From IMG/VR virus record IMGVR_UViG_3300036770_005357: DNA of 64,000 nt; one strand, 5' to 3'. The translations under genes were made by a program, and so were the position numbers. The stretch comes from a virus. Its lineage: Duplodnaviria > Caudoviricetes. Shown here piece by piece: positions 2,328 to 64,000 of the stretch. Below the pieces are notes generated by a model. That model ran no database searches, was not told the DNA's origin, and saw nothing but the letters and a program-made list of their open reading frames with translations. Every line of letters starts with the position of its first letter. The first letter of the stretch is position 1.

Positions 2328-2869
2328 GTAAAAAGAAAATACTTTTATTAAGTGATGATTTACGAATGCATAGTGGTATAGCTACTATGAGTCGTGAATT
2401 GGTACTAGGCACACTTCACCATTATAATTGGGTACAAGTAGCAGGCGCAATTGAACATCCTGAACAAGGTAAAATCATTGATATGAAAGAAGCTTGTGAT
2501 AAGTTAAATGGTAGAACTGACAATTATCTTAAATTATATCCCGTTAATGGATACGGTGATGAAGAAACTCTTTTTCAAATTATAGCTATGGAAAAACCAG
2601 ATGCTATAATGCATTTTACTGATCCTAGATTTTGGGGGTGGCTCTATGCTATAGAACACCAAATTCGTAGTAAAATTCCACTTACATATCTTGATATTTG
2701 GGATGACTTACCGTATCCTATGTGGAATAAACCATTCTACAAGAGTTGTGATGCTTTATTTGCAATTAGTAAACAAACTGATAATATCAACAAATGGGTT
2801 TTAGGACCAGAAAACTGTACTAGTATTTATGGTGATTTTGATAGTAACGGAAACATTATTAAAGGATAA
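2324..2869 (+). CDS. GT-B (GT4-like) glycosyltransferase, N-terminal part of a split gene
   Basis: KKILLLSDD...HSGIATMSREL, PDAIMHFTDPR, YLDIWDD. Ends at TAA, in frame with 2873. Confidence 0.75.
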   Translation: MSKKKILLLSDDLRMHSGIATMSRELVLGTLHHYNWVQVAGAIEHPEQGKIIDMKEACDKLNGRTDNYLKLYPVNGYGDEETLFQIIAMEKPDAIMHFTDPRFWGWLYAIEHQIRSKIPLTYLDIWDDLPYPMWNKPFYKSCDALFAISKQTDNINKWVLGPENCTSIYGDFDSNGNIIKG

Positions 2870-2872
2870 TTT

Positions 2873-3838
2873 ATGCCAGTAAAAGGAAAACATTTATTAC
2901 ATTTAGTACCACATGGTATCAACAGCGACGAATTTAAACCACTTCCAAAAAATGATAAAGAAGTGTTAAAACTTAAAAAAGAATATTTAGGCGACGGCGA
3001 ATATAACTTTATAGTGGCATTTAACAGTCGTAATGCACATCGTAAACATCCTGCAAATTTGATTATGGCGTTCAAGTCATTCTGTGCTTCAATCGATCAA
3101 GAATCGGCAAAGAAATGTGCATTGATAATGCATACTGATAAAGTATGTGAAGCGGGTACAGATTTGGTTGCTACAATACAAGCAATTTGTCCAGAATATA
3201 AAGTCGTATTAGATGAAAGTAGAAAATCACCGGAAGAGATGGTTGCTTTCTATAACTTAGCGGATGTGACTGCAAATATAAGTTCAAACGAAGGATTCGG
3301 TCTTAGTATCGCTGAAAGTATAATGTGTGGTACGCCTGTTATTGCAACTGTTACTGGTGGATTACAAGACCAATTAGGCATTGTAGATGATAATAACAAC
3401 CCAGTCAAATTTAATCTTGAATTCGGTACCAATGTTACCGGTAAATACAAGAAACATGGTATATGGGCTAAACCGATTTGGACTAAGGTACAAAACCTTC
3501 AAGGCAGTCCACCAACACCATATATCATGGATGATTTGACAAACTATGATGATATAGCTGATGCAATTGCTTATTGGTACTTTTTGGGAAATGAAAAACG
3601 AGAAAAATGTGGATTGGAGGGTAGAAGATGGGCAATGAATGAAGGTGGTATAAATTCTAAAAATATGTGTGATCAATTTATTAAAGCGATGGATTTTACA
3701 CTTGAAAATTTCACATCTGTTAATAAATTTGACATTTTTACAACGGATGGTTATGATACTAAAAATCTACCTCAAGGAAAATTGGGATTTGAATTACATA
3801 AAGTGAATGTAGATAAAATCAAAAGTGAAATACAATGA
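2873..3838 (+). CDS. GT-B (GT4-like) glycosyltransferase, C-terminal part of a split gene
   Basis: VPHGIN, NSRNAHRKHP, YNLADV, SSNEGFGLSIAESIMCGTPVIATVTGG (EX7E motif). AAGGA SD-like site 6 nt upstream. Confidence 0.85.
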   Translation: MPVKGKHLLHLVPHGINSDEFKPLPKNDKEVLKLKKEYLGDGEYNFIVAFNSRNAHRKHPANLIMAFKSFCASIDQESAKKCALIMHTDKVCEAGTDLVATIQAICPEYKVVLDESRKSPEEMVAFYNLADVTANISSNEGFGLSIAESIMCGTPVIATVTGGLQDQLGIVDDNNNPVKFNLEFGTNVTGKYKKHGIWAKPIWTKVQNLQGSPPTPYIMDDLTNYDDIADAIAYWYFLGNEKREKCGLEGRRWAMNEGGINSKNMCDQFIKAMDFTLENFTSVNKFDIFTTDGYDTKNLPQGKLGFELHKVNVDKIKSEIQ

Positions 3839-23325: not shown

Positions 23326-23583
23326 TTAAGCGCGGCTAGCACGGGTAGTGCGAGTAGCGGTACGTGTAGCACTGGTAGCATTGGAGCTATACCCAGCTGC
23401 CAAAACTTCACGAAGAGCATTGATCTGACGACCGGTGAGATCAACACGAGCGTTTCCAGCACGGACAGTCAATCGTGAAGCCTTCTTAGCCTTCGGAAAT
23501 GGAGTAGAGAGATAAATCTCAACACCAGTGGAGTTGTGGCCGACGAAGTTAGTCTTGTTACGAGTATTCTTACGAGTATACAT
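23326..23583 (-). CDS. Small basic hypothetical protein, apparently highly expressed
   Basis: Own sigma70 promoter, AAAGGA SD, A-rich leader, higher GC than neighbours, R/T-rich tail. Confidence 0.7.
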   Translation of the reverse strand: MYTRKNTRNKTNFVGHNSTGVEIYLSTPFPKAKKASRLTVRAGNARVDLTGRQINALREVLAAGYSSNATSATRTATRTTRASRA

Positions 23584-23647
23584 ATTACTTATTTTCCTTT
23601 TATTTTTTGTTTGTTTTGTTTCGTTAGTTGTTCGCTAACTTAGATTA

Positions 23648-28838: not shown

Positions 28839-29201
28839 TTAAGCAGTTACCTTATCGCTAACATCGGCATCGATTGTAACAATCTTACTAGATGCAGCAG
28901 CATCAATCTTCATAACATTAACAGTCAACCCATCCTTGAGAATAACCTCACGGGACTTAGCTTCCTCAATATGAGCGGCCGTAGGATTGCCGTGTACAAA
29001 TACAATAGTAGGACGACCCTTACCATTGTGTAGTACTCCAATATCATTAACTTCACCAGTTTCAATAGCCCTCTTCAAACGAACTCGTAGAGTAATCTCT
29101 ACAAACTCCTTGTTAGCCTCATTCAACTCCTTAATTGTAAAGATATTGGTAGGCCAAGTAATAGTTAGGTTGGTCTTGTTCTTACGATCAGTCTTCTTCA
29201 T
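28839..29201 (-). CDS. Winged-helix DNA-binding protein (putative)
   Basis: FTIKEL...EITLRVRLKRAIETGEV...GKGRP pattern; strong AAGGAG SD. Confidence 0.5.
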   Translation of the reverse strand: MKKTDRKNKTNLTITWPTNIFTIKELNEANKEFVEITLRVRLKRAIETGEVNDIGVLHNGKGRPTIVFVHGNPTAAHIEEAKSREVILKDGLTVNVMKIDAAASSKIVTIDADVSDKVTA

Positions 29202-29259
29202 TTTTATTTCTCCTTATTATTTTTGTTTATGTTTGCTGGTTTATTACACCATAAATTAT

Positions 29260-29287
29260 ATTATATCACTCTTATATTATATGTCAA
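29260..29287 (-). promoter_or_regulatory. sigma70 promoter TTGACA-N16-TATAAT
   Basis: Consensus hexamers with TGn extension; the -35 overlaps the last codons of the VWA gene. Confidence 0.75.
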
Positions 29288-40276: not shown

Positions 40277-40290
40277 AACAGGTATAACTA

Positions 40291-40324
40291 GAAAACCGGT
40301 GGCATATAAAAATACCACCGGTTT
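40291..40324 (-). terminator. Terminator-like hairpin after the SSB gene
   Basis: CCGGUGGUAU/AUGCCACCGG stem, followed by UUUUCU. Confidence 0.65.
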
Positions 40325-40334
40325 AATTTATTTT

Positions 40335-41162
40335 TTAGGAGTTAAACAAATCGTCAAAAGCAGCGGTAACATCGTCCGTTGCAGCTGACTTAGCCTTGGC
40401 AGCACTTGGAGATGCTGTCGGCTTGGAAGCAGCTGGAGCAGCTGCTGGTTGTGCTGGAACATCGTCATCATCAGCAGAAACTACTGGTGTTTCGGTTGTC
40501 TCAGCAGTGTCAGGATTCAACCACTTATCCATGACATCCTTAAGTTCATCATAAGAGAACTCAGGAAATAGATCAAGAATGTTAACTTGAGACTTGAGTG
40601 CTTCAAGCAACTGAGCGTTCTTCGGATCAACAGCGATACTCGTATTTGGCTTAACACGAATATTAGTTTCAGGGAAACTCTTACCAGATTCATCGCCAGT
40701 CTTGAACTCAACAACAATGTCTCGTCCACTGGTCAAGTCGGTAATATCACCGAAATCGGGATCGCTGATAATAGAAAGCAGCTCTTGATAAACTTGCTTG
40801 CCAAATCCCCAAAACTTGACACCTTCATGTTCCTCACCGCGAACGATGACAGGAGCAAAAGTACGCATCTTGGGTTCCATCTTACGACCCATCTTCCAAT
40901 CCTCCTTATCACCGGTCTTCTTGAGACGGTTACTGAACTCAACAATAGGATCTGGACGACCGAAACTATCAGGACTCAAATATGTCTTACCATTAATGTT
41001 GTAATGAAACTTGAGTTCAATGAAAGGATTTTCCGGAACATACTTATAGGGAACAATACGAACAACTTGCTTGCCCGGCTTGGGCTTCCAAATAAGATTG
41101 GACTTTTGATTTGTGTTTGAAAGAGAGTTCAAACGACTCTTTAGTTTACTAATGTCTAGCAT
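40335..41162 (-). CDS. Single-stranded DNA-binding protein (gp32-like)
   Basis: WKPKPG...VRIVP, FHY, DPI, G.K.WGFGK, DITD...GRD, Ala/Pro linker, acidic tail FDDLFNS. Confidence 0.88.
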   Translation of the reverse strand: MLDISKLKSRLNSLSNTNQKSNLIWKPKPGKQVVRIVPYKYVPENPFIELKFHYNINGKTYLSPDSFGRPDPIVEFSNRLKKTGDKEDWKMGRKMEPKMRTFAPVIVRGEEHEGVKFWGFGKQVYQELLSIISDPDFGDITDLTSGRDIVVEFKTGDESGKSFPETNIRVKPNTSIAVDPKNAQLLEALKSQVNILDLFPEFSYDELKDVMDKWLNPDTAETTETPVVSADDDDVPAQPAAAPAASKPTASPSAAKAKSAATDDVTAAFDDLFNS

Positions 41163-41219
41163 AATTTTAATTGATTAATTGTTAATTGTTTAATTAGATA
41201 ATTGATAATTATTTAAGTA
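41162..41219 (-). promoter_or_regulatory. Putative SSB translational operator: seven AAUUA repeats in a 57-nt G-free leader
   Basis: TAATT on the + strand at 41162, 41168, 41176, 41183, 41191, 41199 and 41206; no SD. Confidence 0.65.
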
Positions 41220-41260
41220 CTTACTCAAGTATAAAACGAACTATCAATAAATACATATTA

Positions 41261-42166
41261 TCACAAAAGATAATCTTGTAAACTTATTTTAGTAAACAAT
41301 TTTTTAACCTCGTCGTACCGCCAAAATTCACATTTTAAAAAATTAATAATATTAATCATTCGGTTAATATCTTTTTTTCTCAATGATCCATTCGGATAAT
41401 AATGTCGGGGTTCATCATATTCAACTACAATATTTTTTTCTACATCATACGCATCTAGCCAATAACCCAATTCTTTTATATAAAATTCACCGCCATTTAA
41501 AGCATGTCTCAGTTTCCATCCATATTCTTTATTAAGTTGTTCAAAATATTCACATGCTTTTAAATTGAAATTTGGACAAATTTTACCATGTTTCATTTCC
41601 AACTCTTGAAGTTTTTTAAGTCTCATTTTAGTTTTGACTTCACTTCTTTTAGCCGGATTTTTGTCGCCTGTAAATTTTCCCTTTAAAGATTCACTAATTT
41701 TTATTTTTGATTCAACATTATGATTTTTTCCATACATCGGATGATTTGGACCTCGCATACCAACCTTACCTAAGTGTTTATTTCTTATTTTTTCTTTTGT
41801 TTCATCTGTATGTTTTTTGCCGTACATAGGATGATTTTTTCCCTTTATTTTTTTACTTATATTATTTCTTTGTTCCGGCGATAAAATTCTTCCTTTGTTT
41901 TTTGAAGAAATTTTATTTTTACTGACACATGTATGATTTTTTCCATGCATGGGGTTGTTTTGACCACTATAATTTCTACACATCATACATTTAGATTTTT
42001 TATTAATTTGACGGATCATATCAAGTTTAAGACCATATAATTGAATAGATTCACACCCATCACATTTTTTAAAGTATTTTCTAGTATTATTAATTAAAAT
42101 ATACGGATAATCTTTTGATCTATCATAAAAACACTCATATACACAATCATTTATAGTAATATTCAT
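41261..42166 (-). mobile_element. Free-standing homing endonuclease with NUMOD3 repeats and C-terminal PD-(D/E)XK (DUF559/Vsr-like) domain
   Basis: NPMHGKNH, HPMYGKKHTDETKEKI, HPMYGKNH repeats; LDAYD...VVEYDE..H. Confidence 0.8.
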
Positions 42167-63196: not shown

Positions 63197-64000
63197 TTAT
63201 AATCCCAACTTTTTATTTATTATATTTATTTGTTCTTGTTGTTTATCAATTAAATCAACAATTTCTTTTATGCCTTGTATTAACACTGCGGTTAATTTCG
63301 TATAATTAACACCGCTTAATTTACCATTGTGATCATAACTTACAAATTCAGGATAAATTTTTTCAACTTGTTCAGCTATCAAACCTATCATCAATTCAGA
63401 TTTAGGATCATTTTTATATCTAAAATATACAGGTACTAAAGAAAGTATCTTTTGTAAATGTGGAGGTATTAATGGCGTTATATCAGTTTTACTACCTTCT
63501 GTAGATGTTTCAACTAACGAACCAGCAACAGTAAGCGTTGTTCCAGAAACACTTAAGAAACTTACACTTTGTAATGTAGTTGTACTTGTTGTTTTTACAA
63601 GATAATCGGGTTGATTTGTAAACGAACCACCACTTATACCACTTGTACCTGCAGGAGCACTTAAACCGGAAGTTCCTTGTGTACCGCTGCTACCACTTGT
63701 ACTATTACTACCGCTTGTACCCGCAGCCCCACTCTTACCAGCACTACCATTTGTTCCGCTACTACCGCTTGTGTTGCTACTACCACTTGTACCAGCAGCA
63801 CCATTTGCACCGTTACTACCGTTTGTTCCGCTACTACCGCTTGTGTTGCTACTACCGCTTGTACCAGCAGCACCGCTCTTGCCTGCTGTACCATCTGTAC
63901 CGCTACTACCGCTTGTGTTGCTACTACCGCTTGTACCCGCAGCCCCACTCTTACCAGCACTACCATTTGTTCCGCTACTACCGCTTGTGTTGCTACTACC
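63197..64000 (-). CDS. Collagen-like tail fibre with C-terminal peptidase S74 intramolecular chaperone (start lies beyond the window)
   Basis: Frame open from 64000. G-X-Y repeats, then ETSTEGSKTDI, V.F.Y, IGLIAEQVEKIYPE, VNY..L...L..IKE. Confidence 0.9.
   Translation of the reverse strand, partial: GSSNTSGSSGTNGSAGKSGAAGTSGSSNTSGSSGTDGTAGKSGAAGTSGSSNTSGSSGTNGSNGANGAAGTSGSSNTSGSSGTNGSAGKSGAAGTSGSNSTSGSSGTQGTSGLSAPAGTSGISGGSFTNQPDYLVKTTSTTTLQSVSFLSVSGTTLTVAGSLVETSTEGSKTDITPLIPPHLQKILSLVPVYFRYKNDPKSELMIGLIAEQVEKIYPEFVSYDHNGKLSGVNYTKLTAVLIQGIKEIVDLIDKQQEQINIINKKLGL
63630..64000 (-). repeat. 72-nt (24-aa) collagen-like tandem repeat GTS GSS NTS GSS GTN GSA GKS GAA
   Basis: About four units plus a degenerate one; units 1 and 4 are nucleotide-identical, 216 nt apart. 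Confidence 0.9.

Follow-up and report, generated by a model that had tools for sequence, protein, structure and literature searches.

How a protein that binds nucleic acids non-specifically can single out one mRNA is classically illustrated by gp32, which represses its own synthesis. To our knowledge, nearly all work on this self-repression concerns T4, T2 and RB69. The locus described here raises the question of whether the SSB gene of a freshwater phage may be controlled in a comparable way. The DNA analysed, referred to below as the window, is a stretch of 64,000 nucleotides within an IMG/VR record of 173,066 bp that is estimated to be 73% complete. In an initial annotation, the leader of the SSB gene had been read as an independently evolved gp32-style operator in which each of seven AAUUA repeats seats one SSB monomer.

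The AAUUA array and the G-free tract

The SSB gene, the repeat array ahead of it and the predicted single-stranded part of its leader have the following positions.

40335–41162, minus strand: SSB gene, 275 aa (gp32 family, Pfam PF08804, E 2.4e-14)
41162–41210, minus strand: seven AAUUA words in units AAUUAUC, AAUUAAAC and AAUUAAC, period 7–8 nt (word count, Tandem Repeats Finder)
41163–41200, minus strand: predicted unpaired G-free tail of 38 nt, repeats 3–7 (counts, MFE fold, folds of relatives)

On the minus strand, AATTA starts at 41210, 41203, 41195, 41187, 41180, 41172 and 41166, with spacings of 7, 8, 8, 7, 8 and 6 nt from 5' to 3'. The seven copies reported in the initial annotation are real, and its spacing list (6, 8, 7, 8, 8, 7) is the same series in plus-strand order. 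Coordinates also confirm that the last copy takes in the start codon, as the final letter of the seventh AATTA is the A of the SSB ATG. A G-free run of 59 nt begins at 41219 and consists of the 57 nt ahead of the AUG plus its AU. Counting thus agrees with the earlier statement that the 57 nt contain neither G nor a Shine-Dalgarno (SD) sequence, the latter being impossible because no G is present.

The array stands out from its surroundings. AATTA occurs on the minus strand with a mean of 0.26 per 57 nt, and every other 57-nt segment on both strands of the 64 kb holds at most three copies, segments overlapping the array excepted. Within positions −60 to −1, the SSB gene has seven copies, while every other of 66 crude gene calls has at most two. 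The same SSB region holds one G, a value equalled by one other full-length upstream region among these gene calls, the rest containing 2 to 18. Tandem Repeats Finder detects the array with periods of 8 and 15. The A+T content of the genome is 68.5%.

The missing SD holds as a fact and fails as a special trait, since only 11 of the 66 genes in the window carry an SD-like word even by a lenient criterion. SD absence is a genome-wide habit and nothing peculiar to the SSB gene. The G-free tail contains the AAUUA words at 41195, 41187, 41180, 41172 and 41166 and continues into the start codon. For positions −38 to +3 of the SSB gene, the predicted unpairedness is 0.75, which ranks third among 64 genes; two genes of the 64 kb have initiation regions with a still more open prediction.

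The SSB and its gene neighbourhood

The start codon of the SSB gene is the ATG at 41162–41160 on the minus strand. Genes for a RecA/UvsX-like recombinase and a 5'-3' exonuclease lie downstream on the same strand. An AlphaFold model of the SSB, built on an alignment of 27 family members, has a pLDDT of 74.6. With this model, Foldseek retrieves gp32 of RB69 (2a1k) and of T4 (1gpc) at E ~1e-10 and a probability of 1.00, and these are its sole strong PDB matches. The OB-fold core is collinear with that of T4 gp32 in Pfam, alignment, model and Foldseek comparisons. BLASTP against T4 gp32 is weak (25% identity, E 0.03), and a PDB sequence search gave no match at E up to 1. The relationship to gp32 rests on Pfam and the fold. 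By its profile match (PF08804, E 2.4e-14) and its modelled fold (2a1k, 1gpc), the 275-aa protein is a gp32-family SSB, which upholds the initial assignment of the gene downstream of the leader.

A search for the ligands of the zinc-binding subdomain found no cysteine anywhere in the 275-aa SSB, and the Cys positions of T4 gp32 align with non-Cys residues or gaps. The SSB therefore lacks a T4-type zinc site. The family alignment and the model indicate a conserved N-terminal helix (residues 4–23) and a disordered acidic linker, followed by an invariant C-terminal AFDDLFN tip. A literal (K/R)3(S/T)2 LAST motif was not found in the SSB.

Conservation and restriction to SSB genes

With the SSB protein as query, at least 598 related loci were retrieved from IMG/VR; amino-acid identity is 77–89% in the best 80. 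The initial annotation had suggested a comparison of SSB leaders in related phages; repeats of the type (C/U)AAUUAA(A)C, G-free into the ATG, are kept in all of the best 80 of the at least 598 loci. The AAUUA word is present in 3 to 8 copies among relatives, the seven of the window being near the top, and TTAA occurs 4–7 times per leader. Averaged over the SSB leaders, there are 4.9 TTAA and a G-free run of 44 nt, versus 0.39 and 4.6 nt in other upstream regions of the same loci.

The restriction of the repeats to SSB genes was assessed with a repeat 21-mer, which occurs in 58 stretches among 2.9 million IMG/VR contigs. The site lies 16–25 nt upstream of an SSB homologue on the same strand in 57 of them, and the 58th is truncated by the end of the fetched stretch. 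A covariance model of the leader has one significant match in the whole 173-kb record. Similar repeats in front of unrelated genes, named in the initial annotation as evidence against an operator, are excluded by these two results. The operator reading is supported in that the repeat leader is specific to SSB genes (57 of 58 sites), strongly conserved (80 relatives) and predicted to be unpaired (0.75). The covariance model does not match Microcystis phage Mel-JY01 or Flavobacterium phage immuto, in the SSB leaders of which the theme is only faintly recognisable.

Members of the clade have a leader identity of 0.82, versus 0.55 at four-fold degenerate sites and 0.67 for shuffled leaders. Since it exceeds both, sequence comparison indicates that the leader is under purifying selection. 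The tails of the relatives (−40 to −1) contain 6 G versus 70 C in 880 nt. Selection appears to act on the RNA strand, because the tail is G-free and C-containing and the helices described below include G-U pairs.

The predicted compound hairpin

Upstream of the unpaired tail, the leader is predicted to fold into a compound hairpin.

41201–41248, minus strand: 5' compound hairpin (MFE, RNAalifold, covariance model)

In the MFE fold of the window, the outer helix pairs 41248–41239 with 41210–41201, the latter strand being repeats 1–2. The middle helix pairs 41237–41234 with 41214–41211, and the inner hairpin pairs 41231–41227 with 41222–41218 around a GAGU loop at 41226–41223. Of the seven repeats proposed as SSB seats, repeats 3–7 are thus predicted to be free, whereas repeats 1–2 are predicted to be base-paired.

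When the distinct leaders of the clade are folded singly, one common architecture emerges in 33 of 33. It begins on the 5' side with an outer helix, continues through an internal loop into an inner stem of 6–9 bp and closes with a 4-nt loop. The outer helix has 9–10 bp and is formed by a 5' box, usually AGUUGGUUAU, and the first repeats (AUAAUUAACU). The loop is GAGU in most leaders and AAGU, GGGU, GUGU or GCGU in others. Between hairpin and AUG, 31–41 nt are unpaired.

The outer and inner helices are recovered by RNAalifold, and the covariance model agrees. Paired cells make up 95.1% in the model-based alignment, versus 78.4% in shuffles (0 of 500 reach the observed value) and 18–47% in slid controls. 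Changes on both sides of a pair are found in all 8 pairs of the inner stem and in 2 of 6 of the outer helix (10 of 14 in total), and the outer helix is mostly invariant among clade leaders. It can form only on the sense RNA, because two G-U pairs are required. The single-sequence MFE of the window leader is no better than that of shuffles (z = −0.27), so the case for the hairpin rests on comparison.

The initial annotation had suggested looking for a pseudoknot upstream that could serve as nucleation site. A folded and covarying element is indeed present, but a pseudoknot was not seen: inspection by eye found none, and MFE and consensus folds give nested helices only. The 4-nt loop is too short for further pairing, and no conserved complement to loop or bulge was seen. 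An Rfam search (evalue mode) of 40900–41500 returned no family, only two chance snoRNA-like matches.

More distant SSB relatives

A further 80 IMG/VR loci were compared, the SSBs of which are 46–62% identical to that of the window. Most of their leaders have a hairpin near the predicted mRNA 5' end, often on a GGUUA box, followed by repeats of the UAAUUAAC, ACAAUUA or AACUUAA type. Many also contain a clear GGAG SD together with the repeats. The repeats do not appear to be merely an SD substitute, because they are kept where the GGAG SD is present.

The counts for these leaders, which are not phylogenetically independent, amount to 2.2 TTAA and 1.5 AATTA, versus 0.76 and 0.23 ahead of other genes in these loci. 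Predicted openness is also higher over the last 30 nt of these leaders (0.70 vs 0.44). In self-comparison, a period of 7 nt gives the best match in 40 of 66 distant leaders, and one of 8 nt does so in 21 of 25 close leaders. To judge from these sequences, inheritance or a common binding preference explains the repeat theme better than a one-off independent invention. An alternative hairpin, with the GGUUA box in its loop (CAAG...CUUG) as in the distant relatives, is conceivable.

A putative transcription unit

The SSB gene appears to be transcribed by itself, as judged from the following elements at its two ends.

41255–41282, minus strand: sigma70-like promoter, TTTACA, 16-nt spacer, TG-extended TAATAT (promoter scan and conservation)
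41246–41253, minus strand: TATTTATT motif between the −10 and the predicted mRNA start (sequence match; kept in the relatives L024 and L038)
40289–40324, minus strand: intrinsic terminator, 13-bp stem plus UUUU (−23.1 kcal/mol, z = −4.7)

The predicted promoter overlaps the last codons and the stop of an upstream homing-endonuclease gene and, alone among the promoter-like sites of the region, has a TG ahead of its −10. Promoter-like sites are not enriched in this AT-rich region, with 14 found versus 11.4 expected from shuffles; conservation is therefore the basis of the promoter calls. A promoter-like TTGAnn-N16/17-TAnnnT element that ends 5–12 nt before the 5' box is present in 34 of 37 distinct leaders lacking the endonuclease gene. 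By this spacing, the mRNA would begin right at the hairpin.

The TATTTATT motif is present at 41253–41246, where the initial annotation had placed it. It matches, at 7 of 8 positions, the word TATTTATA, which precedes many genes of the minus strand by 5–25 nt. Overall, TATTTATA shows no enrichment (21 found versus 18 expected), yet the minus strand carries 19 of the 21 copies, many of them close upstream of a gene start.

The predicted terminator is located directly 3' of the SSB stop, which would make the SSB gene a self-contained transcription unit. In two aquatic metatranscriptome runs, which contain small shares of the stretch, only contigs of relatives 85–95% alike fall on the window. These span the SSB coding region and the leader into the hairpin, and their ends differ, which leaves them uninformative on 5' end, strand and level.

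Comparison with the T4 gene 32 operator

The T4 operator consists of a 5' pseudoknot of ~28 nt and a less structured stretch, longer than 40 nt, that contains several UUAAA/UAAA repeats as well as the RBS; repression of gene 32 needs both the pseudoknot and the unstructured part, and the pseudoknot is thought to nucleate cooperative gp32 binding (PMC535899; PMC3014915). In the T4 leader (NC_000866), AAUUA occurs three times with a 5-nt period just before the SD, along with UUAAA units.

The leader of the window shares several properties with this system. As in T4, T2 and RB69, the gene that would be controlled encodes an SSB with the gp32 fold. A folded 5' element adjoins an unstructured A/U-rich tract of ~40 nt with UUAA(A) repeats that reaches the start codon, and the word AAUUA is common to both leaders, T4 having three copies. 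In both phages, a homing-endonuclease gene lies immediately upstream and overlaps the control region in its 5' part, namely segG in T4 and a NUMOD3 gene here.

The leader also differs from that of T4. In place of the H-type pseudoknot of T4, a compound hairpin with outer helix, internal loop, inner stem and GAGU-type tetraloop is predicted, the 3' strand of which is made of the first repeats. Unlike in T4, the tract has neither SD nor G, and the repeat period is 7–8 nt rather than 5 nt. The SSB differs from T4 gp32 by lacking the zinc site and is ~25% identical to it.

RB49 offers a further comparison, as its gene 32 leader keeps UUAA/UUAAA units and has no recognisable pseudoknot (PMC535899). 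It resembles the present leaders in that repeat words are kept while the folded part varies among gp32 leaders. RB49 differs from the window phage as a T4-like coliphage with an SD.

The leader of the window probably did not evolve independently of the T4 operator, judging from the sequences compared. The initial claim of an independent origin is made unlikely by the gp32 homology, the AAUUA/UUAAA words of T4 and the occurrence of the theme in SSB relatives of 46–62% identity.

Proposed mechanism and alternative explanations

On balance, and with moderate confidence, we read the leader as an operator of the gp32 type, through which the SSB would control its own translation, and as a variant of the gene 32 site of T4. 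This reading starts from the observed anatomy of the leader, its conservation and restriction to SSB genes, the covarying structure, the family of the protein and the layout and words shared with T4. Binding of the SSB to the leader, its cooperativity and the resulting repression are what we infer by analogy with T4.

According to the proposed mechanism, the SSB gene would be transcribed from its own sigma70-like promoter as a short unit ending at the strong terminator. The mRNA would start with the compound hairpin, the outer helix of which forms between the 5' box and one or two initial AAUUA(U/A)C repeats, followed by ~38 nt of G-free unpaired AAUUAA(A)C repeats running into the AUG. Ribosomes may load on this tract, in a genome that hardly uses SD sites. 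The tract would be the longest, most open, UUAA-rich single strand that the phage makes. As long as ssDNA is available, SSB would be titrated away and its mRNA translated. Once free SSB builds up, about five monomers at ~7 nt each could bind cooperatively along the tract, with the hairpin serving as boundary or nucleation site for the SSB lattice and as 5' protection. Bound SSB would cover the start codon, and its own synthesis would stop. A correspondence of one repeat to one monomer would fit the 7–8-nt period of this SSB family but lacks a precedent, the T4 period being 5 nt.

Several observations speak against an autogenous operator. Where T4 requires an H-type pseudoknot, the folded element here is a hairpin. 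Its outer helix varies little, with changes on both sides in 2 of 6 pairs, and the single-sequence fold of the window does not surpass shuffles (z = −0.27). Only promoter-like sites serve to predict where the mRNA begins. In an SD-poor, AT-rich genome, an open A/U- and ACA-rich leader would be expected for any heavily translated gene, and two genes of the window have more open initiation regions. The T4 repeat period is 5 nt and not 7–8, and the zinc subdomain of T4 gp32 is missing from the SSB.

The main alternative, in our estimate less likely, is that the leader is a translation enhancer (an SD-independent S1 loading or standby site) and mRNA stabiliser only, with the SSB exerting no feedback. 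SSB would be needed in stoichiometric amounts, and the 5' hairpin and 3' terminator would protect the transcript. With SD-like words in 11 of 66 genes, initiation must rely on open A-rich leaders, and the SSB initiation region, with its unstructured A/U-rich stretch, is among the most open of the window. Documented translation enhancers of bacteria include A/U-rich sequences and ACA motifs (PMC2176067; PMC3879156). Like these, the leader has an unstructured, ACA-containing A/U-rich stretch before the start codon, which can promote SD-independent loading. The position of the hairpin 5–12 nt after the −10, at the predicted mRNA 5' end, and the strong terminator after the SSB gene would suit a stabilised transcript, and in T4 the leader of gene 32 has been linked to a processed mRNA of unusual stability (PMC3014915).

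For an enhancer, however, composition would suffice, yet the word AAUUAA(A)C and its 7–8-nt phase are conserved. Whereas those enhancers are short and defined by composition, the leader has conserved phased words, belongs to one gene family and carries a covarying 5' hairpin. The element precedes no other gene of the 173-kb record, structural genes included, and where relatives have a good GGAG SD, the repeats are retained on its 5' side. An enhancer role and autoregulation can coexist, by analogy with T4.

It is improbable that the repeats are the target of an RNA-binding regulator other than SSB, such as a RegA-like protein that represses early mRNAs or an Hfq- or CsrA-type host factor for UAA-containing or A/U-rich words. 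SELEX of RB69 RegA is reported to yield UAA triplets, according to a title cited in PMC3014915, and every repeat contains UAA. A search of the 73%-complete record found no RegA (PF01818) homologue, though, and a general repressor should have several targets, whereas the element occurs once. The strict linkage to SSB genes in IMG/VR points to SSB instead.

A role at the DNA level, be it as origin iterons or as a meltable AT-rich spacer to which a transcription factor or nucleoid protein binds, is more improbable still. AT-rich direct repeats with a 7–8-bp period near replication genes do resemble origin iterons, and the array overlaps weak promoter-like matches. Against this, the strand asymmetry (essentially no G, 8% C) would be meaningless for duplex DNA, and the helices need G-U pairs, which restricts them to the sense strand. 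The array always abuts the ATG in one orientation, and the inner stem covaries as RNA. Finally, functionless low complexity or recent slippage expansion might be imagined in a genome of 68.5% A+T in which the word copies vary from 3 to 8 among relatives, the seven of the window being near the top, but such a chance origin is excluded by the linkage to SSB genes, the uniqueness of the array in the genome and the conservation of word and position across SSB genes that differ at ~45% of four-fold sites.

If the autogenous operator is real, a very diverged and very abundant second lineage would keep the T4 logic with different parts: a hairpin for the pseudoknot, no SD, no zinc site and a word phased at 7–8 nt. 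This would show which operator features are essential and provide hundreds of natural variants for asking how specificity arises. The leader also marks SSB genes and early promoters in uncultivated freshwater phages.

The homing-endonuclease insertion

The gene that overlaps the predicted SSB promoter lies directly upstream of the leader.

41261–42166, minus strand: NUMOD3 homing-endonuclease-like gene (Pfam NUMOD3, E 2e-21)

Its 3' end holds the predicted promoter. Among the 80 fetched relatives, only L038 has this gene (68% identity), and L024 retains a remnant consisting of the last codons. An alternative upstream block, TTTACA-N16-TG-extended TAATAT followed by TATTTATT, is found in the window, L038 and L024 only. 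The same three leaders, and no others, have GAUAGUU or GAUGGUU as 5' helix strand together with AAUUAUC as first repeat. The outer helix is preserved in them because the changed 5' strand is accompanied by a matching 3' strand.

These leaders allow a wider proposal, which we hold to be doubtful as a whole. A large and ancient gp32-like branch without zinc site might use as its operator a phased 7–8-nt lattice that matches the site size of the SSB, the sequence-nonspecific protein being in register from the hairpin boundary to the start codon. The outer helix would be a gate melted by the helix-destabilising SSB. Homing endonucleases inserting next to the gene would bring along a new promoter and a new 5' operator strand, and the first repeat would be altered to match.

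The arrangement would be a second case of a homing-endonuclease gene lodged in an SSB control region. In T4, segG immediately precedes gene 32 and extends into the 5' portion of the gene 32 pseudoknot (PMC535899).

A homing-endonuclease-like gene upstream of the SSB gene

The SSB gene is adjoined on its upstream side by a NUMOD3 homing-endonuclease-like gene, the 3' end of which overlaps the predicted SSB promoter. Among the best 80 of at least 598 SSB relatives, the NUMOD3 gene was found outside the window only at locus L038, and locus L024 retains a remnant.

41261-42166 of the window, minus strand: NUMOD3 homing-endonuclease-like gene
L038, 1998-2894: copy of the NUMOD3 gene (68% identity)
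L024, about 2740-3000: remnant of the NUMOD3 gene

The SSB leaders of the window, L038 and L024 have in common a replaced promoter and a replaced 5' strand of the outer helix in the predicted compound hairpin. In T4, segG holds the equivalent position and overlaps the gene 32 pseudoknot.

Leaders of distant SSB relatives

Phased leader words of their own kind precede the SSB gene at five loci with more distant relatives (L169, L131, L163, L108 and L106). At L169 (about 1440-1500), the heptamer AACUUAA occurs four times and is followed by an AGGAAA Shine-Dalgarno (SD) word, the leader of L131 contains UUAUUAA units, and those of L106 and L108 are G-free over 63-64 nt.

Translation initiation and promoters

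Of the 66 genes crudely called across the whole window, just 11 carry an SD-like word at -18 to -4; SD pairing is therefore little used by the phage and presumably by its host as well. AAGGA/AAGGAG is present in the leaders of two small genes, which also have the highest predicted initiation-region openness in the window (0.86 and 0.82).

23326-23583, minus strand: 85-aa gene, with a very A-rich leader at 23584-23645
28839-29201, minus strand: 120-aa gene, with a very A-rich leader at 29202-29262

Despite this sparse use of SD pairing, the SSB leader in relatives is preceded by predicted TTGACA-type promoters, which do not fit the Bacteroidota promoter type. Many minus-strand start codons in the window are preceded by TATTTATA at a distance of 5-25 nt, in some cases in tandem.

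27271, 33880, 34487/34493, 44476/44482, 51959, 55525, 58113 and 60863, minus strand: examples of TATTTATA

While its total count in the window shows no enrichment, 19 of the 21 copies lie on the minus strand. This word is probably a late-type promoter of the phage, in which case near-leaderless mRNAs would result.

The SSB protein and downstream region

In the SSB family alignment, the C-terminal AFDDLFN tip is invariant and follows a variable acidic or Ala/Pro-rich linker. This tip is reminiscent of the partner-binding tips of bacterial SSBs. Cysteine is absent from every position of the alignment, which makes this a gp32 fold free of zinc.

A strong intrinsic terminator separates the SSB stop codon from the RecA-like gene, comprising a 13-bp stem followed by UUUU (-23.1 kcal/mol, z = -4.7); it was absent from the output of a simple terminator scan.

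40289-40324, minus strand: intrinsic terminator

At the window end, positions 63637-64000 form a long imperfect tandem repeat with periods of 18, 54, 72 and 144, the opposite strand of which is a putative Gly/Ser/Thr-rich coding repeat.
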